Shown here one piece after another: positions 26,618 through 39,833 of a stretch of DNA of 64,000 nucleotides. The stretch spans positions 225,065 through 289,064 of the forward strand of contig NZ_CANMAH010000003.1 in the NCBI RefSeq assembly GCF_947495825.1. Direction: 5' to 3'. Made by a program: the position numbers and the translations under genes. Under the pieces are notes generated by a model. The model did no database searches, was not told the origin of the DNA, and saw only the letters and a list, made by a program, of their open reading frames with translations. Each line of letters starts with the position of its first letter. Within the stretch, counting starts at the first letter, position 1. This stretch comes from an uncultured Psychrobacter sp. Lineage in GTDB: Bacteria; Pseudomonadota; Gammaproteobacteria; Pseudomonadales; Moraxellaceae.

Positions 26618-27112
26618 TTAAAGATCTATTGAAAAATTCTCACCCAAACTCTTTTCGATAGCAGTATCTGTGACTGCTGCTGCTGTCATCTTAACAGCAC
26701 TAGCAATCGCATTACCGTTTTCCCAATACTCCGCACCATGAGGGACAACTTTAATTAGCTGCACTTTTGGGTCTTCTTTGCCTTGCTCAAAATAAGCGTT
26801 GTATGTCATTGACCATAGCTCATCAAGCTTTTCTCGATCTTCTACTAGTTCAGCTCTACCCGTGACAGACAAGTAGCTTTTGTCATCCTGACTGACGTAC
26901 GCTAAGTTTACTTCCGGATTGTTATTGATATTGTCAACAGTTTCAGAAGGACTATGACCAATAAACCAAATCTCTTTGGCCCCAATGCTGGTTTCTGTCG
27001 TATTCATCGGACAAGAATGAAGATGATCTTCGTGAGTACGAGTAGTCATCATTGTATACTTGATATTGTTAACCATTGCTTGGATTTTATCCATTTGTTC
27101 TTGTTTACTCAT
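26618..27112 (-). CDS. Pyridoxamine 5'-phosphate oxidase-like / general stress protein 26 family protein (copy 1)
   Basis: The protein is 164 aa with a GSP26-like pattern: MMTT...EIWFIG...LSVTGRAELVEDREKLDELW. Confidence 0.75.
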   Translation of the reverse strand: MSKQEQMDKIQAMVNNIKYTMMTTRTHEDHLHSCPMNTTETSIGAKEIWFIGHSPSETVDNINNNPEVNLAYVSQDDKSYLSVTGRAELVEDREKLDELWSMTYNAYFEQGKEDPKVQLIKVVPHGAEYWENGNAIASAVKMTAAAVTDTAIEKSLGENFSIDL

Positions 27113-27486: not shown

Positions 27487-27981
27487 TTACAGAGAGACTG
27501 AAAACTGCTTACCGATATCTTCTGCAGTTTCTCCGTCTTGTACTGCTGCTGCGGCCATCTTAAACATGTTGACAGTAGAGCTACCACTTAACCAGCATTC
27601 TACGCCATGCGGTACAACTTTAATAAGCTGCACATTTGGATCTTCTTTACCATGCTCAAAAAACGCATTGTAAACAGGAGACCATAGCTCCTCTAGTTTG
27701 TCTTTATCCGTAGGCAACTCTGCATTGGCACTGATAGAGACGTAATTTTTCTCATCTTGAGTAGCATAAGATAGACCAATTTTTTTATTGTCTTGAATAT
27801 CTTTTACCACGTCTGAAGTTTTATCACCGATAAACCAAATCTCTTTACCACCGATGCTTGCTTCACTGGTAGTCATTGGCCACGCATGGACATCGCCTTT
27901 GCTATTAATAGTGCTCATCATGGCGAATTTTACGTCTTTAATTACGTCTTGGATTTTATCGATTTGTTCTTGTTTATTCAT
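27487..27981 (-). CDS. Pyridoxamine 5'-phosphate oxidase-like / general stress protein 26 family protein (copy 2)
   Basis: The protein is 164 aa and collinear with copy 1 (MNKQEQIDKIQ..., EIWFIG, VQLIKVVPHG). Confidence 0.75.
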   Translation of the reverse strand: MNKQEQIDKIQDVIKDVKFAMMSTINSKGDVHAWPMTTSEASIGGKEIWFIGDKTSDVVKDIQDNKKIGLSYATQDEKNYVSISANAELPTDKDKLEELWSPVYNAFFEHGKEDPNVQLIKVVPHGVECWLSGSSTVNMFKMAAAAVQDGETAEDIGKQFSVSL

Positions 27982-28336
27982 AATAGATATCCTTATTGCG
28001 TTGAAATTAAAATTTTAGTGAAAGGTCGCTGTTAATGGTTTTAATTATTAGCTGGTTGTAGAATAACGATAGTCACCCGCACAGTTATATAGTTTGCCCG
28101 TAAGACGATGTTAGTGTTTGTAAGGTATACGATAATTAAGTAAAAAGTGTAGTGCGTTAGGCAAAAGTTTGCTGCTATAAAAAAACAAAGATAGCGAAGA
28201 CTCTCTTAAATGAGTTATGTGTGTTAGGGACAATTTATCCTGGTTTATACCTGCTTATTATGAGCCTTCTTGTTATAATACACAGACCATTTACTTTGCA
28301 TTGCAGTGATGCCTTGATCTTACGGATTATGCCTTT

Positions 28337-31300
28337 ATGATGACCATCGCCGGACAACCGTTCCTTACCGATTTTCAGACGCAGCAACTCATCAATCAGT
28401 TTCAGCAAAAAACCGAGCTAAATGTCAGCCAAATCAATACCCAGCAAGTGTATGTGCTATCACGGAAGCTCGAAGGTGATGAGCAAAAAAAAGCGCTGGA
28501 CCTATTTGGTATTAAAGAAGATATTCAATTTGTCGCCCCGCAAGACAACCGATTACAAGTCGTCGTTGGCCCACGTTTTGGCACCATATCGCCATGGGCA
28601 AGTAAAGCGACCGACATCTTTAATAACTGTGAAATCGAGATTAATCGCGTCGAGCGCGTCATCGTTTATACGCTAACCTTTGATGAAAAAGCAGACGGTG
28701 AGGGGAATGCGATTAATAACAAGTTATCAAGTGCCGCTGAGCAGTTATTGTTTGATCGCATGACCCAAAGCTTGGTTTATGACTTAGATGACGTGAGCAA
28801 ATTATTTGATGACGAACCACCAGCATCGCTCAATCGCATCGATGTGATGGGTGAAGGACGCAGTGCGCTTGAGTCGGCTAATACCCAGTTTGGCTTTGCG
28901 TTGTCGAGTGATGACATCGACTATCTGATGAATGCCTATGTCAATGAGCTAGGCCGTAATCCAACCGACGTTGAGCTAATGATGTTTGCGCAGGCCAACT
29001 CAGAGCATTGCCGTCACAAGATCTTTAATGCCGAGTGGACGATCGATGGCGAGGTGCAGCCAAAGTCATTGTTTCAGATGATCAAAAATACCTATCAATC
29101 AAACCCGCAAGGCATCTTGTCTGCTTATAAGGACAACGCGGCGGTGATGGCAGGAGCAGAGGGTCTACGTTATTATCCTGTGCCGACTGATGCGATGGAC
29201 GCCAATTCTGCGCATCCGTATGACTTCCATCAAGAAGCTATCGACATCTTAATGAAAGTCGAAACCCATAACCACCCAACGGCGATTGCTCCTTATGCTG
29301 GCGCTGCAACAGGCGCAGGCGGTGAGATTCGTGATGAAGGTGCAACGGGTCGCGGCGGTAAGCCAAAAGCCGGTCTGACAGGTTTCCACGTATCGCATCT
29401 TCATATCCCTGAGCTTGCGGAAAAATGGGAGCAGTCTGGTCAATTAAGTACGCAGGGTTATGGTACGCCAGATCGTATGGCGACCAGTCTTGAGATTATG
29501 ACCGAAGCGCCATTAGGCTCAGCCAATTTCTCAAACGAGTTTGGACGTCCCAACCTATGCGGCTATTTCCGTAGTTTTCAGCTTGATACTTCAGCGGCCA
29601 AAGACGGTAGCGAGATGCGCGGCTATCATAAGCCCATCATGCTGGCGGGCGGTTATGGTAATATCAAACGCAACCTTATTGAAAAAAACGCCATTCGCGA
29701 AGGGGATTTGCTGATCGTCCTTGGTGGCCCTGCGATGCAAATCGGTCTTGGCGGCGGTGCGGCGTCTTCGGTCGATAGCGGTGAGTTGGATGAAGGTTTG
29801 GACTTTGCTTCAGTGCAGCGTGATAACGCTGAGATGGAGCGTCGCTGTCAAGAAGTTATCGATCGCTGCTGGTCCTTAGCTGGTAACGATATTGACGCTA
29901 GTAATGCCAGCAAAGACGGCAACCCAATCGTCTCTGTCCATGATGTCGGGGCAGGTGGTCTGTCAAATGCCATGCCAGAGCTGGTCGATGACCATGACAT
30001 GGGCGCGCATCTGAACCTGCGTAAGATTCCATCGCTAGAAGCGGGCATGTCGCCAATGGCCATCTGGTCAAATGAGGCGCAAGAGCGTTATGTCCTCGCG
30101 ATTCGTCCAGAGAGCAAAGCGCAATTTGATGCAATCTGTGCCCGTGAGCGTTGTCCGTATGCTATCTTAGGCGAAGCGACTGAAATACGTCAGCTTATCG
30201 TTGATGATGAGTTGCTCCCTGAGCAGCCAGTCGATATGCCGATGCAAGTACTGCTTGGTGGTACGCCAAAGATGCAGCGCAGCTTTAGTCGTCAAGAGAA
30301 TGAATTGTCGCCGCTTGCGCTTAATGACTTTAACCTAACTGAATCTATTAAAGATGTGCTACGTCATCCAACCGTTGCGAGCAAGTCATTCTTGATTAGT
30401 ATTGGTGACCGCTCTATCACAGGTATGGTAGTGCGCGATCAATATGTTGGTCGCTATCAAGTGCCTGTATCAGATTGCGCAATCACCGCATCAGGTCTGG
30501 TGGCGCTTGATGGTCAACCAATGACTGGTGAGGCGATGAGTGTCGGTGAGCGTACCCCTGTTGCCCTTATTAGTCCAAAAGCCTCGGCGCGTCTGGCGGT
30601 TGGTGAAGCCATTACCAATATCGCAGGCGCACGTATCGCTCAGCTATCTGATATCACTATGTCAGCGAACTGGATGGCCGCTTGCGGTGACGATGCGGAA
30701 GACGCGGCATTGTTTGATGCCGTCCATACAGTCGGTGAAGAGCTGTGCCCAGCACTGGGTATCGCTATTCCAGTCGGTAAAGATTCGCTATCGATGCGTG
30801 CTAACTGGACAGACAGCGATGAAAATGGTAACGCAGACAAATCAGTGGTCTCGCCAATGAGCCTTGTGATTACCGCGTTTGCGCCTGTCGTCGATGTGGC
30901 AAAAGCTTTAACCCCTGAGCTAATCAACGGTGATAGCGCTTTCTACCGTATTGACTTATCCAAAGGTAAATTGCGTCTAGGCGGTTCGATCCTTGCGCAA
31001 ACGCTGAGCCAACTCGGTAACGACTGCCCAGATCTAGCGCAGCCAAGTGATTTGATCGACTTCTTTAACTTTGTCCAAGCGGGCAACGCGCAAGGCGTCA
31101 TCAGCGCTTATCACGATATCGGTGATGGCGGTCTATTAGCGACCATCGCAGAGATGCAGTTCACCAGCCGTCAAGGTATCAAGCTGTCATTAGATGATAA
31201 AAACCTACTCGGTCAATTATTCAGTGAAGAGCTGGGCGCAGTCATCCAAGTATTACCTGAAAACGTTACTACATTGATGGAGCTAGCAGAGCAGCATAAT

Positions 31301-32368
31301 GTCAGCGACATGCTTAGTCTCGTCGGTCAAAGTACTGAGGAAGACAGCCTCATCATTCAAACACCGTTACATATGGGCGATGACACTTTACGCTTTAGCC
31401 GTTCTGAGCTACAACAAGAATGGAGTCAGGTTAGCTATCAGATTGCCCGTCGCCGTGACAACCCAGCATGCGTGCAGCAAGAGTATGACTTGATTGCTGA
31501 TGCGAGCCATAAAGGCCTAATCGCTGCGCCAAACTTTGATCTCAATCAAAAAGTCGAAGAGCCATATCTAAACAGCCGCGCTGATTCTGATAACAGCAAG
31601 CCAAGAGTCGCTATCCTGCGCGAGCAAGGCGTCAACGGTCAGACCGAGATGGCAGCAGGCTTCACTCAAGCAGGCTTTGAAGCGGTCGACGTGCACATGA
31701 GCGATTTGCTTGAAGGTCGCATCAATCTACGTGACTTCGACGGTCTAGTCGCTTGTGGCGGCTTTAGTTACGGTGACGTACTCGGCGCAGGCTCTGGCTG
31801 GGCAAACTCTATCTTGTTCCATGACGAATTACGCATGCAGTTTGTGCGCTTCTTTGCCCGTCCTGATACCTTTAGCTTAGGTGTCTGTAACGGCTGTCAG
31901 ATGATGGCGCAGCTCAAAGGCCTCATCCCAGGCGCGGAAAACTTCCCACGCTTCATCGCTAATAAATCCGCTCGATTTGAAGCGCGTACGGTCAACGTCA
32001 AAGTCGAGCGTACCAAGTCTATCCTGTTCAAAGGCATGCAAGACAGTATCTTACCAATCGCTGTGGCGCATGGTGAAGGCTATGCCACGCTGGACAACAC
32101 AGAAATCGACGGTATGGCAAAACACGGTCAGCTCGCCATGCGTTATGTCGATAGCCAAGGTCATCCAACCGAGACTTATCCGCTCAATCCAAACGGTTCG
32201 CTCGGCGGTGTCACGGGTCTATGTAGCACCGACGGTCGCGTCACCATTATGATGCCGCACCCTGAGCGTACGCTATGCGCCTACAATCACAGCTGGAAAC
32301 CAGAAGCATGGGACGAGGACGGCGCGTGGATGCGTATGTTCCGTAACGCTCGCGCTTGGTTAAGATAA
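28337..32368 (+). CDS. purL: Phosphoribosylformylglycinamidine synthase (single-chain large PurL)
   Basis: The size matches E. coli PurL (1,295 aa). Motifs include [25 protein letters not shown] and the C-terminal GATase with GVCNGCQMM and MPHPER. Confidence 0.95.
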
Positions 32369-32404
32369 GCTAAGTTGGTTTAGAGTATAGTTCTAGGTAA
32401 TAAA

Positions 32405-32431
32405 AAAGGTGGGCTTCGGCTCACCTTTTTT
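32405..32431 (+). terminator. purL rho-independent terminator
   Basis: aaaaaaggtgggcTTCGgctcacctttttt is a 7-bp stem with one G-T pair, a tetraloop and a T-tract. Confidence 0.75.
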
Positions 32432-32527
32432 GTGTTTGGAATTTCTGATATTTTTAAAGATAAAAATTTTGACCTGATATATGAATGTTATCTGTTAATC
32501 TAAGCCATTAATCACTAGGGCGTGTCT

Positions 32528-32746
32528 TCAATTCAGCTGACAATGAACGATAGTACACGCCAGATAAAGCATTGACTTAAAATTGCGAGCTAACTTTTCA
32601 TAGCGAGTGGCGATACTACGAAAGTGTTTGAGCCTTGCAAACATACTCTCTACCAAATGACGCAGTTTGTATAAGTAGCTATCGAATTCTGGATTAGGCG
32701 CTTTAGCATTGCTCCTTTTGAGAATTATAGGAATCATGTCATGCAT
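32528..32746 (-). mobile_element. IS5-family (IS427/ISL2-like) transposase C-terminal remnant
   Basis: YKLRHLVESMFARLKHFRSIATRYEKLARNFKSMLYLACTIV is the conserved C-terminal block of IS5-family DDE transposases. Only about 70 codons remain, and no N-terminal or catalytic region is present. Confidence 0.7.
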
Positions 32747-32967
32747 ACAAGCTTTAATAGACGCGGTATTGTAACTATTATTTAGGGCTTATCTAATTGA
32801 AGATATGCCCTAATCAGGGAGTTGTTATAGGTTTAACAATTGATGTACAGTAAGTTTTAGTTGCAAACTTATCCATCTGATAATCATATTTATAAATAAG
32901 CCATTATTAATATATTTTTGCAACAAAGCTGGTTATAGATAACCTTTATTCTACAAATATTTAGGAT

Positions 32968-35900
32968 GTGAATATGACAAATTTGCCTGAAGAAGGTGAT
33001 AGCCAAAGAATTGGACGACTAGCGAAAAAAGCTTTGACTAATCATATGCCACTTGATTGGATAGAGAAAGAACAAGATGGTGATTCAGACTATGGAATTG
33101 ACTACTTGATACAGTTGAAAAATGACAGTAGTCAAGTCGAGTTTAGCTTCTATCTACAGCTCAAAGGTACTATGTCGCCAACATATAATAAAACTCATAC
33201 ATCCATCTCTTACGATTTCAAAACCACTACATTAGCATATTATCACCGACAAGAACCTCTTGTAATGGTAGCGGTTGTAGATATTCGAGATGAGAAAAAG
33301 TTTTATGAGTGTCCTATTTATTATTTTTGGCTTGATGAGAAATGGTTTGACGAAAATGCTAAAAAGTTGGATAGTCAAAAAACTATTTCGATAAACATTC
33401 CTACTACAAACCTGCTAAATCAGGATTTAGATATATATAGTTTTTATGCGAATAGATTTCAAGAAAAGCTAGCATTCTCCGAGATTAGAAAAGGTATTAA
33501 CGGATTAGAAAGATCTGTATTGGATACTTTGAGTCTAATCGCAAAAAATATCGATGAAAAGCCTATTTTTTTAAAATCGATTGAACTGAAAAATGAAGCC
33601 CCTTGGATTGATAATCCTAAGGATGAAGTTTCAACTGATTTAAAGATGTGTTCAGATTATTTATCAAATAATCGCATACAGGCTGCAAAAGTAGTATTAG
33701 AAAAATTGAATAATAAACAAGATAACTTTAATACCCATGAAATGGCAGAGTTTTACTATCAAAAAGGTAATATTCTGTCTCATGAAGGATTTCGTGATGA
33801 TGCGGAAAAATACTTTAAGTTAGCACAAGAGAAGAGTTCCAAAGATCGATATCGTTTGGCGTACTTAGAGTCAAAATTTAAACTACACTCAACACTTTCA
33901 CCAGATGAGCTCGAAGAGTCACTTGACACACTAGGGAGTAGTAGTCTTCCAGAATGTGCACTAAAAGCTAAAATTTTAGCAATGCTTAAGAGACCTACAG
34001 AGGCTCTTCAACTGCTAAAACAACATTACCCCACTGAAACTACGATGCAAATGGTTATATGTACTATAGGATATCTTCATGAAGAACTAGATCTCATCAT
34101 TGAAGAAAATTTAGGTCATGAATTTGAGGATGATAGAAAAACCTATATTTTTAATGCACTAGCTGCTAGAAGATTCTTCCAGAAATCTTCAAATGATGTG
34201 GGAATATCTGGAGAGATTCTTCCTATTGAGGGGAGACCTGATTACGATCTAGAAGGGATGAAGCAAGCATTTAGTTCATTACAGAAAGCATGGGTTGCAG
34301 CTAAAAAGCTAGGATATCCAAATGATATCACTATGCTTATAGATATCAGTGCATTAATTTACGGATATTTTAACAAATTAGAAGAGCTTACCTGTTATTT
34401 TGATGAGATTTTAAGTGAAAGAACCTCACATTCAGAAGTCATACGATCATATGTTCGTATATTATTTAATTGTGGGCAATATACAAAAGTGATCGAATTA
34501 CTTGAAAAGCTAGAATTACTAGATAGTGATGAATGTGGTATACATATCCTCTCATATCATAACTTAAATAAATCTAAATTATGTTTATCGTTAATTCAAA
34601 AATATGAAAGTATTTTATTGAGTTCTTCTAGAGAAAATATTCCTGCTATCTTTTGTATTGGGGCTGAAATCGCTGATTCAATGTTCAACACAGATTTAGC
34701 TACTAGGTATAAAGACATTGTAAAGTCACTCCCAGACGGTGAAGCATTCATTGCGATTCAAGATTTTGTCAATAAGTCCAACCGAGATAAAAACAGACAT
34801 AATGAGTTTACACAAAACTTATATCAAAAATACATAGATTTAGATAAGCCTTTAGTTATTGCTGTACAACTGATTAGATATTTAAATCCTCGGGATAGTA
34901 TGACTGCTAATCAATTAATTGAGTTAGCAGAGAATATATTAGAAACAAGAGAGTTGAGTAAAAATAGATATTTAGACCTAGCACAAGCTTTTATCACTAC
35001 AGAGCGCTGGGCTGATGCGGAAAGATTAGCAGAAAAAAATATTGCTAAAGGTGTAGCTGCTTCAAAATGGAAACTGGTACAAGCGGCAGCTTTACAAAAT
35101 CAAGGTAAGGTAGGAGTTGCCTATCAGATTATTACAGATGTAATCAAATTAGAGGACATAGGAAAGCAAGAAAAAGATTTTTTTATCAATCTCTCTCTTT
35201 CATTAGGATTAATTGATAATGTAGTCGAACAGCTTGAAGAGGATTTAGCAAATTCTTCTAATACAGAAGATCAAATCGTTATTATTAGACGACTAATTAG
35301 CATTTATTCGAACAGAGCTGACTATAAGGAAAAAACAAAGACTGCGGTTTTAAGATATGGAACACTTGTAGATCAAAATAACTGTGATCAGGAAGGTGAT
35401 TATTTGCAGTTATGTATGCTTCTATGCCCATTTGACAATGATAAACAGTTTACAGACTATAGAGAAAGGCAAGATAAATATACCAAAAAATTTCCTGACT
35501 CTAAAGTTTTTAAGGTAGGGAATATCAATATAGATGAAGGTGCTGAAGGATTATTAGAATCTTTGAGAGATATGGCGGGCATTACTCCAGAACAGATTGA
35601 ATTATGGGAAAGTAACAAGCAAAAGCTTAGGAGTGGTGAATTACCTATACCTTTTTTTATGAGAGGATTATGTTTACAGGATACTAGAGATATTTTTACT
35701 ACTTGGTTTTTATCAAAATCTTCTACAGATCAAGAGTTAGAATTTAAAATTCTACATTCTCCTCAGTTAAATAAAAATGATTTTAAAGACCTTATAGATA
35801 CGTCTGATATTTTGTTAATAGAGGAAACTTCAATACTGGTTCTTAACGAATTAGAGGTTCTTGATAGCTTTTTGGAGTCCTTACCAAGATTTTCTATATT

Positions 35901-36798
35901 GGAAACGTTCTTTAAAAAAATTAACCTTACAGCTCATGCTCTACTTTCCCCTTATAATAATATTGCAAAAGAAATTTTAAAATCTATACAGAATAATCTG
36001 ACTAAGTTAGATTTGATACACATAGATGAGGAAGGTTCATTACAGTATGACCAGCCGTTAAAGAATAAAAAAGGACTTTTAATTACTGACGATTTATACC
36101 TAAAAAGATGGATTTCTGTAGAAAATCATAATACTCAGCAGACTGGTAATATATTTAATGTCTTAGAGTATTTATATGATAAAGGTATGTTAGACAAGAG
36201 TGTTTTACAAGAAAAAATAGTTAGTGGCAGTAAATTAGGTATTGTAGATTTAAATATGAGATTAGATTTTTTAGGTGATTCAATAGATTACTTTTTGGGA
36301 AGACCGGAAATTCTAGATTATAAAGATACAGATTTTCAATATATTTTTGACAAGATAATGCTGTTTCATACAGATTTCAAAATAAAATATAAGTTATTTT
36401 TAGATATTTTCCTTTATGTTGATGTGCAGAAAATTAGTCCACAGACTTTACTAACTCTAGTCTATAAACTCATTGAGAGTGAAGATAGTTACGAACCGCA
36501 GGCAGTTATTACGACGTGGTTAATCCACTCTGGGCTTGGAAGGAAATGTGAGAAAGGCATGGAAAATAACTTTAGTACTGAACATTTAATCTTGTGGAAT
36601 AAATATACATCAGTTATGGGAATATTAGATCCTGAAAGTTCTTCAATTATATCTTTATTAGAGAAGGTGGTATCTGTAATACTGAAATTAGAACCAGAAA
36701 TTAAAAGTATAGCGTTTAACAACTTAAAAAGTGGATTTTCTTCAGATTCAATAGAATATAGTAACTTAAAAAGATTAGATCGTTTTTTCAATCTATAA
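32968..36798 (+). CDS. Large hypothetical protein: N-terminal DUF4365-like (PD-(D/E)xK-type) module, TPR-like helical repeats and a PIN-like C-terminal region
   Basis: The ORF is 1,276 aa and uninterrupted. The probable start is ATG 32974, preceded by a TAGGAT RBS. The N-terminus has DYGIDYLIQL...FYLQLKGT. TPR-like segments include EMAEFYYQKGNILSHEGFRDDAEKYFKLAQ. The C-terminal region has DILLIEETSILVL and LLITDDLYL. There is no Walker A motif. The gene is very AT-rich. Confidence 0.7.
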   Translation: MNMTNLPEEGDSQRIGRLAKKALTNHMPLDWIEKEQDGDSDYGIDYLIQLKNDSSQVEFSFYLQLKGTMSPTYNKTHTSISYDFKTTTLAYYHRQEPLVMVAVVDIRDEKKFYECPIYYFWLDEKWFDENAKKLDSQKTISINIPTTNLLNQDLDIYSFYANRFQEKLAFSEIRKGINGLERSVLDTLSLIAKNIDEKPIFLKSIELKNEAPWIDNPKDEVSTDLKMCSDYLSNNRIQAAKVVLEKLNNKQDNFNTHEMAEFYYQKGNILSHEGFRDDAEKYFKLAQEKSSKDRYRLAYLESKFKLHSTLSPDELEESLDTLGSSSLPECALKAKILAMLKRPTEALQLLKQHYPTETTMQMVICTIGYLHEELDLIIEENLGHEFEDDRKTYIFNALAARRFFQKSSNDVGISGEILPIEGRPDYDLEGMKQAFSSLQKAWVAAKKLGYPNDITMLIDISALIYGYFNKLEELTCYFDEILSERTSHSEVIRSYVRILFNCGQYTKVIELLEKLELLDSDECGIHILSYHNLNKSKLCLSLIQKYESILLSSSRENIPAIFCIGAEIADSMFNTDLATRYKDIVKSLPDGEAFIAIQDFVNKSNRDKNRHNEFTQNLYQKYIDLDKPLVIAVQLIRYLNPRDSMTANQLIELAENILETRELSKNRYLDLAQAFITTERWADAERLAEKNIAKGVAASKWKLVQAAALQNQGKVGVAYQIITDVIKLEDIGKQEKDFFINLSLSLGLIDNVVEQLEEDLANSSNTEDQIVIIRRLISIYSNRADYKEKTKTAVLRYGTLVDQNNCDQEGDYLQLCMLLCPFDNDKQFTDYRERQDKYTKKFPDSKVFKVGNINIDEGAEGLLESLRDMAGITPEQIELWESNKQKLRSGELPIPFFMRGLCLQDTRDIFTTWFLSKSSTDQELEFKILHSPQLNKNDFKDLIDTSDILLIEETSILVLNELEVLDSFLESLPRFSILETFFKKINLTAHALLSPYNNIAKEILKSIQNNLTKLDLIHIDEEGSLQYDQPLKNKKGLLITDDLYLKRWISVENHNTQQTGNIFNVLEYLYDKGMLDKSVLQEKIVSGSKLGIVDLNMRLDFLGDSIDYFLGRPEILDYKDTDFQYIFDKIMLFHTDFKIKYKLFLDIFLYVDVQKISPQTLLTLVYKLIESEDSYEPQAVITTWLIHSGLGRKCEKGMENNFSTEHLILWNKYTSVMGILDPESSSIISLLEKVVSVILKLEPEIKSIAFNNLKSGFSSDSIEYSNLKRLDRFFNL

Positions 36799-37054
36799 AG
36801 GTTGTGACTTGACCACGATGATGGGTTTGATGATTAAAAAAATGCTGTAGAAGCATCCAAAAAGATTTACTAAATATCTTATTTTTGGTGTTTCGGTAGC
36901 TTAGATTCTTTAGATAGTCGCTTTCGTCTGATTCCTCAATAAACCTGATGATCATCTGATCTAGGTTTTGTCTATTTGCGCTAAAGTCCTGCTTATCATC
37001 ATATAAAATTTGATTGAGCGTGGCAGGTGCTGGGAAGTCTTTGAGTGATGTCAA
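36788..37054 (-). pseudogene. DinB-superfamily gene fragment (truncated)
   Basis: The fragment carries the DinB-family motif HQTHHRGQ only 6 codons before its stop. It has no ATG start (only TTG). The frame is closed upstream by a stop at 37124-37126, inside the tdh terminator. Its 3' end overlaps the giant ORF by 11 nt. Confidence 0.6.
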
Positions 37055-37103
37055 CGCCTCAAATCCTGATGGGTAACTGGGGTGTTTGTTGAGGCGACTT
37101 ACC

Positions 37104-37133
37104 CAAAAAAAACGGCACTGAAATCAGTACCGT
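37104..37133 (-). terminator. kbl-tdh operon rho-independent terminator
   Basis: An A-tract on the + strand is followed by the stem acggcact/agtaccgt (one mismatch) with a 6-nt loop. Confidence 0.65.
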
Positions 37134-37195
37134 TTTATCAGCCGTGATAATGTAAACCCTAACCACGACTCCTCAAATACTGACGCACTACGTGA

Positions 37196-38221
37196 TCAAT
37201 CCCAGCTTAAAATCACCTTACCACATTGCCCACTTTCCATGATATCAAAGCCTTCTTGAAAGTCATCAATGTGCATGCGATGGGTGATGATAGGTGACAA
37301 ATCAATACCGCTAATCAGCATTTGCTCCATCTGATACCAGGTCTCCCACATTTCACGGCCATAAATACCCTTTAAGGTTAACGCCTTAAAAATAATTTTG
37401 CTCCAATCCACCGTGGTGGTGTTAGGTAAAATACCCAAGAGAGAGATTTTGGAGCCGTTATACATGTTACTAATCATCGAATCAAAGGCCTGAGGTGAGC
37501 CTGACATCTCAAGTCCAATATCGAAGCCGTGCATTTTTAATTCAGCAATGGCGCCTTCGATGGTTTCACCTTTGGCTGGGTTGACGGTCATCGTCGCGCC
37601 CATTTTTTTGGCAATCTCTAAGCGATAATCACTGATATCACTGACCACAATATTTCGCGCCCCTGCGAAGCGGCAAATCGCCGTTGCCATGGAACCAATC
37701 AGCCCCGCACCCGTAATCAGTACATCCTCACCAAGTACCGGAAATGAAAGGGCAGTATGAGTGGCATTGCCAAAGGGGTCCATAATGGCTGCCATCTCAT
37801 CGCTGATACGCTCATCAAGTTTTATGGCATTATCGGCAGGTATCACCAAATATTCGGCAAACGCGCCATCGCGGTCAACGCCCACGCCTATGGTGTTTTC
37901 GCACACATGCAGCTTACCACGGCGGCAGTTACGGCAATGCCCGCAAGCGATATGCCCCTCTCCAGTGACTCGGTCACCCACTTCAAAATGCTTGACGCCA
38001 TCGCCCACTTCACTAATGATACCAACGTATTCATGTCCGATGACCATCGGCGTCTTTACAGTTTTTTGTGACCACTCATCCCACTTATAAATGTGCAAAT
38101 CTGTACCACAAATGGCGGTTTTTTTGATTTTTATTTTTACGTCGTTGATGCCAACCTGTGGTTCTGGTACATCTTGCATCCAGATGCCTTTTTTATCTTG
38201 GGCTTTAACCAGAGCTTTCAT
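37196..38221 (-). CDS. tdh: L-threonine 3-dehydrogenase
   Basis: This is a zinc alcohol dehydrogenase-family protein with [22 protein letters not shown] and GAGLIGSMA. It is paired with kbl. Confidence 0.95.
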
Positions 38222-38284
38222 ACTTTTCTCTTATTTAACTGTGTTGCATTTCATTGTTGAATCTAGATAAATACCGAACGACGC

Positions 38285-39475
38285 TTAATCAATCACCTGC
38301 ATTTGCTTGGCGACTTTGATAAAGGCGGCGATACACTGGTCTAGCTGATCCGTAGTATGGGCAGCAGAGAGCTGGACCCGAATGCGAGCCTCGTCTTTAG
38401 GTACGACAGGGTAGAAGAAGCCAATCACATAAATGCCTTCTTTAAGCAGTGCGTCCGCCATTTGCTGGGAGACATTGGCGTCATAGAGCATTACTGCACA
38501 AATGGCCGATTCGGTGGGCTTGATATCGAAGCCTGCATCTTGCATTTTCTTAACAAAATAGGCGGTATTTTCATGCAATTTATCTTGTAGGGTATTGTCT
38601 TGCGATAGCATATCAAACGCTTTTACCCCAGCGGCAGCGACCATAGGAGGAATAGAGTTTGAAAAAAGATACGGACGTGAGCGTTGACGCAACATCTCAA
38701 TAATTTCTTTTTTTCCTGTCGTAAAGCCGCCGATAGCACCACCGAATGCCTTGCCTAAGGTACCAGTGATAAGCTCAATATCACCACGTAGATCAAACAA
38801 TTCAGTTACGCCGCCACCAGTGCGACCGACCACGCCTGCTGAATGCGATTCGTCAATCATCACCATGGCATCATATTTTTGTGCCAACGCATAAATCTCA
38901 TCCATTGGCGCTACATTACCGTCCATCGAAAACACACCATCGGTGACAATCAAACGAAAACGCTGAGCTTGCGCCGCTTGTAATTGAGCCTCTAAGTCTT
39001 GCATATCCGCATTGGCATAGCGATAACGCGCGGCTTTACACAGGCGCACACCATCAATGATTGAGGCATGATTTAACGAATCAGAAATAATGGCATCTTC
39101 GCTAGTCAGCAATGGCTCAAATGCACCGCCATTGGCATCGAAACAGGCCGCATAAAGAATCGTATCTTCGGTATTAAAAAACTTAGAAATCGACGCCTCT
39201 AATTGCTTATGCAAATCTTGTGTACCACAAATAAAACGCACCGATGACATACCATAACCTGAGTCTTCGATGGCTTGGGTAGCCGCCTTTTTAATCTCAG
39301 GATGGTCAGACAACCCAAGATAATTATTGGCACAGAAGTTCAGCACTTCACGACCATCGGCGATTTTGATTAGCGCATCTTGCGGAGAGGTGATGACACG
39401 CTCGTTTTTATACAGTCCTGCCGCGCGTATGTCGCTGATTTCTTGCTGTAAATGCTTTTGAAAGGCCTGATACAT
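38285..39475 (-). CDS. kbl: Glycine C-acetyltransferase (2-amino-3-ketobutyrate CoA ligase)
   Basis: Alpha-oxoamine synthase motifs are present: NYLGLSDHPE, DESHSAGVVG and GTLGKAFGG (PLP lysine). Confidence 0.95.
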   Translation of the reverse strand: MYQAFQKHLQQEISDIRAAGLYKNERVITSPQDALIKIADGREVLNFCANNYLGLSDHPEIKKAATQAIEDSGYGMSSVRFICGTQDLHKQLEASISKFFNTEDTILYAACFDANGGAFEPLLTSEDAIISDSLNHASIIDGVRLCKAARYRYANADMQDLEAQLQAAQAQRFRLIVTDGVFSMDGNVAPMDEIYALAQKYDAMVMIDESHSAGVVGRTGGGVTELFDLRGDIELITGTLGKAFGGAIGGFTTGKKEIIEMLRQRSRPYLFSNSIPPMVAAAGVKAFDMLSQDNTLQDKLHENTAYFVKKMQDAGFDIKPTESAICAVMLYDANVSQQMADALLKEGIYVIGFFYPVVPKDEARIRVQLSAAHTTDQLDQCIAAFIKVAKQMQVID

Positions 39476-39833
39476 AAAGATTCCTTTTTTAATATTATGG
39501 GAGCCTGCGTTGATAATGCAGATATCAAAACTGGTGATAGGACCAAATTATTAAAGCCGCACATCATTTTAGGCTTCAATAAAACCAACAATGTGGGAAG
39601 CCAACAATATGGTGCGAGCAGTGATACTATCTATAACTCCGTAAACGGTGATTTTATCATTAGCCCATGGCAATAACTAGCTCAAATAGCTGGTAGATAG
39701 GGCTATTTCCTTGGAACTATATAGGGTTGTTTAGCTGTAGTATTGGTCTCATAGCGGCTTAGATATGTCTTAAAACATAAGACATCAACTTGCGTAACTT
39801 TATAATCTTGATTGGTAAATACCGTCTATCCAG

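Follow-up and report, generated by a model that had tools for sequence, protein, structure and literature searches.

A DUF4365-TPR-PIN protein of an uncultured Psychrobacter as a candidate single-gene conflict system of the published TGP class

A single large gene stands between purL and the tdh and kbl genes in a 64,000-nucleotide stretch of DNA from an uncultured Psychrobacter sp. (contig NZ_CANMAH010000003.1, positions 225,065 to 289,064; the whole stretch is called the window below, and positions are counted from its first letter). Its product, probably of 1,274 amino acids (aa), combines an N-terminal nuclease-like domain of restriction endonuclease (REase) fold with a long TPR-like solenoid and a PIN-like domain. 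With a probability of about 0.6, the gene is interpreted as a single-protein conflict system, directed against phages or other mobile genetic elements, which belongs to the TGP (TPR-GreA/B-C-PIN) class, carries a DUF4365/DREN-type N-terminal effector, and acts through abortive infection. The architecture has already been described computationally, and the window gene is a member of a predicted family and not a new architecture.

The TGP class was described as a set of standalone conflict proteins in which a TPR-GreA/B-C-PIN region, 'constant but rapidly evolving', is preceded by a variable N-terminal effector, namely one of 13 domains that include REase (Kaur, Iyer, Burroughs and Aravind, eLife 2021; PMC8195603). 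The source data of that study list about 450 'REase+TPR+GreAB-C+PIN' proteins from Acinetobacter, Psychrobacter, Pseudomonas, and others. For example, Acinetobacter baumannii APP29939.1 and Psychrobacter urativorans WP_201621921.1 are among the rows, and many entries are named 'DUF4365 domain-containing protein' and measure 1,314-1,321 aa (PMC8195603). The initial annotation of the window, made from the letters alone, had stated that no named system of this exact architecture was known. This was wrong, as the combination was listed in 2021 (PMC8195603) and a member of the present family stands in the published PIN alignment.

The family was connected to the class by way of the Pfam family PF20698 ('PIN domain associated with the TPR-GreAB-C-PIN system') and of the files that accompany the eLife study. 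Distant members of the family match PF20698 below threshold; among 33 diverse members, 14 match it (best E=4.3e-7), and no other PIN family is matched. One protein of the published PIN alignment, QHB89335.1, is 98.9% identical over 190 aa to the family member P0026 (aa 946-1135), which is itself 54% identical to the window protein over the full length. With QHB89335.1 taken out of the published alignment (PIN.aln), hhalign matched the PIN-region alignment of the family to it with a probability of 98.0% (E=2e-13, 156 columns), pairing LLIEETS with the published xLDxxS strand and TDD with the published DD motif. The window protein is assigned to the REase class of TGP because of the source-table entries together with this identity and match to the PIN alignment. 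The features of the class that were found comprise the TGP PIN family, a long TPR region before the PIN domain, an N-terminal effector of REase fold, identity to a listed member, and a standalone gene, and the feature that was not found is the GreA/B-C domain between TPR and PIN. Database searches returned no canonical TGP protein: a profile built from 33 full-length sequences brought up only members of the family and generic TPR proteins, and a PIN-region profile only fragments. Compared with the published REase-TGP proteins, the present family is alike in domain order and size (1,216-1,380 aa in the published table), in the DUF4365-type REase, in the PIN family, and in having no conserved neighbours. 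It differs in that GreA/B-C was not detected, that the window protein falls below PF20698 detection, and that the window clade carries N for D at the fourth PIN acid.

The identity of the N-terminal effector is supported by profile, fold, and conservation. PF14280 (DUF4365) is matched at aa 28-150 (E=4e-14, 53 bits against a Pfam cut-off of 24.3), in agreement with the initial annotation, which had recognised a DUF4365 signature in DYGIDYLIQL (aa 39) and FYLQLKGT (aa 59). In the AlphaFold2 (AF2) model of aa 1-800, an alpha/beta fold spans aa 9-143. The residues D39, G41, D43, Q62, and K64 are invariant in 41 aligned sequences and are at least 90% conserved across the wider set. Of these, D43, Q62, and K64 pair with D41, Q60, and K62 of the DREN domain of SPARDA, a correspondence in which the direct sequence similarity is weak (E=0.16). 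The three DREN residues are catalytic, and the isolated domain shows no activity as a monomer, whereas tetramerisation turns it into a collateral, non-specific nuclease (PMC12205087). A PADLOC scan had been proposed at the outset; version 2 recognises the N-terminal nuclease domain, through the PDC-M02A and Argonaute-associated REase models (Aga_REase at aa 11-110, E=8.5e-4), and nothing else in the protein. The NCBIfam scan of the 1,274-aa protein recognised nothing useful.

The central region had been read as helical repeats from two TPR-like strings, which are present at aa 256 and aa 665. Each TPR match in Pfam is below threshold. The AF2 model of aa 1-800, made from the 41-sequence alignment (predicted local distance difference test score, pLDDT, 87), shows the nuclease fold followed by an alpha-solenoid of about 30 helices, which resembles in Foldseek the TPR superhelices of Ctr9, Ski3, and APC subunits (E ~1e-7). 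A second model, covering aa 780-1274 (pLDDT 91), contains a short helical region, a five-strand alpha/beta domain, and an all-helical C-terminus. Most of its top-ranked Foldseek matches in the PDB are PIN domains, such as 3ix7, AF0591 (1o4w), the SMG6 PIN, and an archaeal PIN-RuvB-like helicase (probability 0.95-1.0, template-modelling score ~0.6 on the target). The AlphaFold and Foldseek comparison suggested in the initial annotation hence returned both TPR superhelices and PIN domains, and the PIN-like layout that it had proposed for the C-terminal part is borne out. The two hydrophobic-strand-plus-acidic motifs on which that proposal was built are ILLIEETS (aa 946) and LLITDD (aa 1035), with E950 and D1040 lying 90 residues apart. 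The motifs [ED]950-[ED]951-T952-S953, [ED]959, and T-[DE]1039-D1040 are conserved; in all members examined this holds for [ED]950, [ED]959, and D1040, the last being invariant. At the fourth classical acidic position of the PIN domain (aa 1062), most clades have D and the clade of the window protein has N. A profile search of the PDB found no close sequence relative of the whole protein.

In a separate observation on selection, the PIN segment (35809-36258) has the highest ratio of non-synonymous to synonymous substitution rates (dN/dS) among the close Psychrobacter orthologues at loci L002, L003, and L005, with values of 0.49-0.67 against 0.0-0.36 in the other segments, from small counts.

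The resemblance of the models to the PIN domain of SMG6 and to TPR scaffolds of the Ski3/Ctr9 kind would also accommodate a role in housekeeping or regulatory RNA metabolism, with a TPR scaffold and a PIN RNase acting on host RNA in the SMG6/Ski manner and a DUF4365 domain that is non-catalytic. Such a role is highly improbable, as the catalytic triad of DUF4365 is invariant, the gene is patchy across genera and differs in position between close species, its GC content is 12-19 points below that of the neighbouring genes, and its relatives occur in mobile-element and defence-island contexts.

The family is large and uniform in build. A word-indexed search found 99 relatives, and an exhaustive HMMER search with aa 165-1274 as the query yielded, at E<=1e-3, the representatives of 216 clusters made at 50% identity; 103 of them reached E<=1e-30. 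Nearly all of the 216 are 1,260-1,350 aa long, and the match begins near residue 165-240; since lengths and match starts are nearly uniform, the architecture is taken to be fixed across the family. The hosts include Psychrobacter, Acinetobacter, Vibrio, Pseudoalteromonas, Shewanella, Pantoea, Klebsiella, Enterobacter (on plasmids), Pectobacterium, Rheinheimera, and others, in a patchy distribution, and the sole annotation of the members is 'DUF4365 domain-containing protein'. The domain was matched in 29 of 33 diverse members, the remainder being truncated at the N-terminus. The mean pairwise identity is 52% in the nuclease, 34% in the TPR region, 38% in the linker, 30% in the PIN domain, and 23% in the C-terminal domain, so that the effector is conserved and the presumed sensor diverges fast. 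A collection of phage genomes gave no match to the homologue borne by the Klebsiella prophage. Complete genomes of E. coli gave no DNA match at or above about 65% identity, and the family is therefore absent or very divergent there.

Swapping of the effector within the family was considered for P0143, P0170, and P0187, which align from the middle of the nuclease, and was rejected for them as these are truncated gene calls. In another member, P0008 of Acinetobacter albensis (locus L016, 1372-5187), a mosaic was observed. Its nuclease is 57% identical to that of the window protein (dN 0.39) and its TPR region and linker are 75-86% identical (dN 0.09-0.15), which suggests that the effector domain was exchanged by recombination between family members.

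The window protein is probably defensive, an interpretation that is supported by the contexts of its relatives and by the precedent of one related TGP protein. In Pantoea agglomerans, a P4-like satellite (int, Ogr/Delta, AlpA, Ash, primase) that is integrated beside smpB carries the gene as its first cargo, following the primase. In Klebsiella (119 member sequences) the gene is a moron of a P2-like prophage, with gpU on one side and genes of the tail fibre on the other. Mobile elements of the P2 and P4 types are well known to harbour defence systems (PMC9122126). On an Enterobacter kobei plasmid, the gene adjoins GajA/GajB (Gabija; PADLOC E=1e-232 to 1e-235). Likewise, it adjoins a PycC-E2-PycTIR operon and a type II restriction-modification (R-M) pair in Psychrobacter sp. 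Pi2-1, and an integrase, a type II R-M system, and HNH genes in another Klebsiella lineage, while in Pseudoalteromonas it lies in an integrase-bounded island that contains a zeta toxin. In the window, in Vibrio neptunius, and in Pectobacterium it is alone amid metabolic genes, and in A. baumannii it is amid metabolic genes beside one uncharacterised 974-aa open reading frame (ORF). The comparison of homologue contexts that had been suggested thus places the relatives in a P4-like satellite and a P2-like prophage, beside Gabija, Pycsar, or R-M genes, in islands with integrases or insertion sequences (ISs), and in some cases alone. No gene recurs beside the family gene in the more than 12 contexts examined. 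A conserved partner gene was accordingly rejected, as the neighbours differ in every context and the 974-aa ORF of A. baumannii was seen nowhere else.

Carriage by a P4-like satellite, a P2-like prophage, and Enterobacter plasmids, and the IS association in Psychrobacter, could instead point to a weapon or addiction module of the mobile elements themselves, with which these elements would exclude competitors or punish their own loss and which would affect phages only secondarily. SPARDA, which has the same nuclease domain, is reported to act against plasmids (10.1101/2025.04.08.647717). A module of this kind is nevertheless quite unlikely, as no antitoxin-like partner gene is conserved and the gene persists under purifying selection in the window and in other chromosomes with no intact mobile element around it. 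It is also largely compatible with the defensive reading, since mobile elements routinely carry defence systems (PMC9122126).

Bab/Agp is the only TGP system with experimental data that was found in the literature searched. Agp of E. coli ECOR25 and a small protein, Bab, jointly confer abortive-infection protection against T5 (10.1101/2024.11.07.622273). The part from TPR to PIN has a similar length in the two proteins, Agp being 1,094 aa and the window protein having 1,110 aa after the nuclease, as compared by description. Both occur in defence hotspots, and in both the N-terminal module is the output. They differ in that an N-terminal amyloid motif of Agp templates the separate, membrane-targeting Bab, whereas the window protein has a fused nuclease and no conserved partner gene. 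SPARDA (short pAgo with DREN-APAZ) shares the Pfam family of the N-terminal domain (DUF4365 = DREN) and the same D...QxK triad, but the Argonaute, the APAZ domain, and the guide nucleic acid are lacking in the window protein, in which the sensor would be the TPR/PIN part of the same polypeptide. A SPARDA-like system was rejected, as neither the protein nor its neighbours have an Ago or APAZ match.

In Avs/STAND proteins, which occur in P4 hotspots, the N-terminal effector varies and is often an Mrr/REase nuclease, and it is fused to a repeat sensor at the C-terminus (PMC9122126). The window protein follows the same logic, with an N-terminal effector fused to a repeat sensor in one large protein, but it is without a STAND NTPase and has a PIN and a helical domain after the repeats. 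The initial annotation had found no Walker A motif and had set STAND/Avs-type NTPases aside. This holds for the 1,274-aa protein, in which neither [AG]xxxxGK[ST] nor even GK[ST] occurs and in which Pfam, NCBIfam, and PADLOC detect no NTPase, and membership in STAND/Avs was rejected on these grounds.

In a further account, the protein is a direct-acting innate nuclease that is constitutively competent and destroys invading DNA or phage transcripts, with the TPR region used for targeting, both nucleases turned on the invader, and the cell surviving. It would agree with the presence of two nuclease-type domains with conserved catalytic residues and with the proposal of Kaur et al. that the PIN domain cleaves transcripts as a first line (PMC8195603). 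It is unlikely, as there is no methyltransferase or other self-protection partner and the neighbours vary by lineage, DREN is collateral and non-specific in SPARDA (PMC12205087), and no activity independent of the effector was found for Agp (10.1101/2024.11.07.622273).

Under the abortive-infection reading, the protein would be a latent monomer in the uninfected cell, as the isolated DREN domain of SPARDA is inactive when monomeric. An infection cue would be recognised by the fast-evolving part that runs from the TPR region through the linker and PIN domain to the C-terminus. Following Kaur et al. (PMC8195603), this cue might be the phage-hijacked RNA polymerase or its transcripts; equally, the TPR or C-terminal domain might bind a phage protein or a nucleic acid. 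Recognition would lead to self-association, by which the N-terminal nucleases would be clustered and would cleave DNA, possibly also RNA, indiscriminately, so that phage replication would halt and the cell would be lost. The PIN domain might cut RNA as a first line or might serve mainly as a nucleic-acid-binding sensor, the fourth acid being N in the window clade. The initial annotation had seen in the combination of a nuclease-like module, a repeat 'sensor', and a second nuclease-like module the grammar of abortive-infection or anti-phage proteins. The modules, the lack of an NTPase, and the defence contexts of relatives agree with it, and what did not stand is its novelty, the architecture having been published.

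Several points weigh against this reading. The window protein itself has no PF20698 match in the Pfam scan, PADLOC v2 recognises it by the N-terminal domain only, and the Foldseek matches to PIN domains have E-values of 0.08-0.2, none below 0.08. Experimental work on the REase class was not found in the literature searched. The case for defence is drawn from genomic surroundings and from a single related TGP protein, known from a preprint, and oligomerisation is proposed by analogy with SPARDA and with a suggestion made for Agp. In several genomes, that of the window included, the gene is alone among housekeeping genes with no defence gene nearby.

The remaining points concern the GreA/B-C domain, which the published architecture places at the position of the linker of aa 841-945 (PMC8195603). 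Neither AF2 model shows a beta-rich domain after aa 155, the TPR-PIN interval included, and hhalign gives the family alignment a probability of 0.3% against E. coli GreA. PF01272 is unmatched at E<=10 in aa 795-948 of nine members; the GreA control, whose identity was confirmed by the same search, matches PF01272 at E=6.6e-30. The PDB profile search gave no GreA, GreB, or Gfh1 chain at E<=1. The linker is predicted to be helical (pLDDT 82-94; helices only by DSSP), with P841, P893, and W911 invariant in the 41-sequence alignment. The absence of the domain matters because the published docking on hijacked RNA polymerase rests on it. A degenerate GreA/B-C remnant in the family is possible because the original authors, with more sensitive methods, annotated the domain in these proteins.

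Within the linker, aa 864-898 (window 35563-35667) show a sub-threshold Pfam match to PF24407, 'HTH_upstream_double_PIN' (E=0.083, 13.7 bits). This signal could be a sign that the linker belongs to a kind of helical module found upstream of other PIN domains and is not GreA/B-C.

A tentative and rather doubtful extension of the TGP assignment is that the DUF4365 clade is a TGP derivative in which the RNA polymerase-binding GreA/B-C module has been lost and the PIN active site weakened, with N at the fourth acidic position. Such a protein would not use the 'hijacked RNA polymerase' model. Its PIN-like domain and hyper-variable C-terminal domain might sense a phage protein or nucleic acid directly, and its DREN nuclease might be switched on by NTPase-independent oligomerisation.

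The coordinates of the gene, of its domains, and of the adjoining features are collected in the table. The ORF list and its translation give 32968..36798 (+) as an ORF of 1,276 aa with a GTG as its first start. ATG at 32974 is the likelier start, because AGGA lies seven nucleotides before it and because the resulting 1,274 aa are also the length of the closest database protein. The uninterrupted ORF of the initial annotation is thus real, but its length of 1,276 aa gives way to the likelier 1,274. The description of an AT-rich insertion between purL and tdh was correct, the gene having a GC content of 0.317 against 0.505 in purL, 0.465 in tdh, and 0.433 in the entire window. The gene is under purifying selection, with an overall dN/dS of 0.16-0.32 against five orthologues, in which the ORF is intact.

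Table. Features of the REase-TPR-PIN gene and its immediate surroundings (window positions)
Feature	Position	Strand	Basis
1,274-aa REase-TPR-PIN gene, including stop codon	32974..36798	+	ORF list, AGGA, intact orthologues
DUF4365/DREN-type PD-(D/E)xK nuclease, aa 1-165	32974..33468	+	Pfam, AF2 fold, best-conserved segment
Nuclease catalytic core, D39-x-G41-x-D43 ... Q62-x-K64 (DYGIDY...FYLQLKGT)	33088..33171	+	Conservation, DREN alignment
TPR-like alpha-solenoid, aa 166-840, ~30 helices	33469..35493	+	AF2, Foldseek, sub-threshold Pfam TPR
Conserved linker, aa 841-945 (FPDS..., LPxPF, W911)	35494..35808	+	Conservation; DSSP helices only
PIN-like domain, aa 946-1095	35809..36258	+	Foldseek, conservation, hhalign to TGP PIN alignment, PF20698
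All-helical C-terminal domain, aa 1096-1274	36259..36795	+	AF2; fastest-evolving part; no Pfam match
Probable promoter region: non-coding stretch travelling with the gene	32756..32973	+	Homology to L003-L005
IS5-family element, internally deleted	32516..32812		18-nt inverted repeats 32516-32533 and 32795-32812; DDE_Tnp_1 fragment
DinB-family gene remnant abutting the right insertion end	36788..37054	-	PF05163 E=1.7e-10, profile positions 68-142 of 165 only

The gene behaves as a self-contained cassette that has moved, because in three Psychrobacter loci with different flanks (L003-L005) the homology is confined to 32756-36799, that is, to the gene and about 218 bp upstream, and ends one base past the stop codon. 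In these three genomes, the cassette sits downstream of mltG, within a truncated tmk, near IS5- and IS256-family elements. It occupies the purL-tdh site in two Psychrobacter genomes, the other being Psychrobacter sp. NZS113, where a 96% identical protein is encoded at the same site and collinearity extends over 28231-39547. The earlier description of an orphan gene hence holds in the sense of a horizontally moving one-gene cassette with no recurring neighbour. The 'scarred' nature of the island is likewise evident, with a DDE transposase fragment on the left and a DinB-family fragment on the right. The IS5 remnant, just upstream of the cassette, resembles a miniature inverted-repeat transposable element of 297 bp around a 72-aa DDE transposase fragment at 32528-32746. 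In L003 and L004, an intact IS5-family copy lies at the corresponding place with respect to the gene, and IS and cassette appear to travel together. On the other side, the last codons of the DinB remnant overlap the 3' end of the large gene, which suggests that insertion of the cassette truncated a resident DinB-family gene. Sigma-70-like hexamers lie at 32754-32781 and 32889-32916, in a scan that returned 17 sites in total against 21 expected from shuffles. The sole terminator-like site is at 37109-37136 on the minus strand, directly downstream of tdh.

Some further observations were made at the loci of relatives. In Psychrobacter sp. Pi2-1 (L004, 15767-18995, -), the Pycsar-type operon has a gene with a prokaryotic E2 domain between the PycC cyclase and the cNMP-binding TIR effector. 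E2 accessories are usually discussed for CBASS, and this Pycsar layout with an E2 gene is unusual. In A. baumannii (L001, 14152-17076, -), the 974-aa ORF runs convergently to the family gene, shares its variable spot, and has no Pfam or PADLOC match. At the end of the P4-like satellite of Pantoea agglomerans (L027, 14576-15712, +), a bacterial RNase-A-like toxin gene and a CdiI_2 immunity gene directly follow the family gene. Near the cassette of Psychrobacter immobilis (L005, 15271-21794, -), four co-oriented ORFs (440, 326, 680, and 743 aa), of which two are tyrosine recombinases, lie beside IS256 fragments and may form a multi-recombinase mobile element. On a Pseudomonas aeruginosa megaplasmid (NZ_CP095921.1; L033, 8163-11207, +), a TGP-like protein of 1,015 aa has no N-terminal effector domain and matches PF20698 with 24.9 bits; its gene directly follows an IS66 element and precedes that of a 988-aa ResIII/DEAD helicase, and the protein is either a TGP truncated by the IS or a variant that lacks an effector and has a helicase as its partner. 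In the window itself, tandem 164-aa Pyrid_ox_like (pyridoxamine-5'-phosphate-oxidase-like) paralogues lie at 26618-27112 (-) and 27487-27981 (-), with an AT-rich spacer (GC 0.28).

If REase-TGP proteins defend their hosts, they would provide a widespread one-gene immunity in Acinetobacter, Klebsiella, Enterobacter, Vibrio, Pseudomonas, and marine Gammaproteobacteria, carried on satellites, prophages, and plasmids, which PADLOC v2 misses apart from the N-terminal domain. In these proteins a collateral DREN nuclease would be controlled by a repeat sensor, with neither an Argonaute nor an NTPase involved. The novelty that remains for the window protein lies in whether its clade works without the GreA/B-C module. 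If the derivative reading were true, the protein would be an Avs-like pattern-recognition receptor without the STAND engine.

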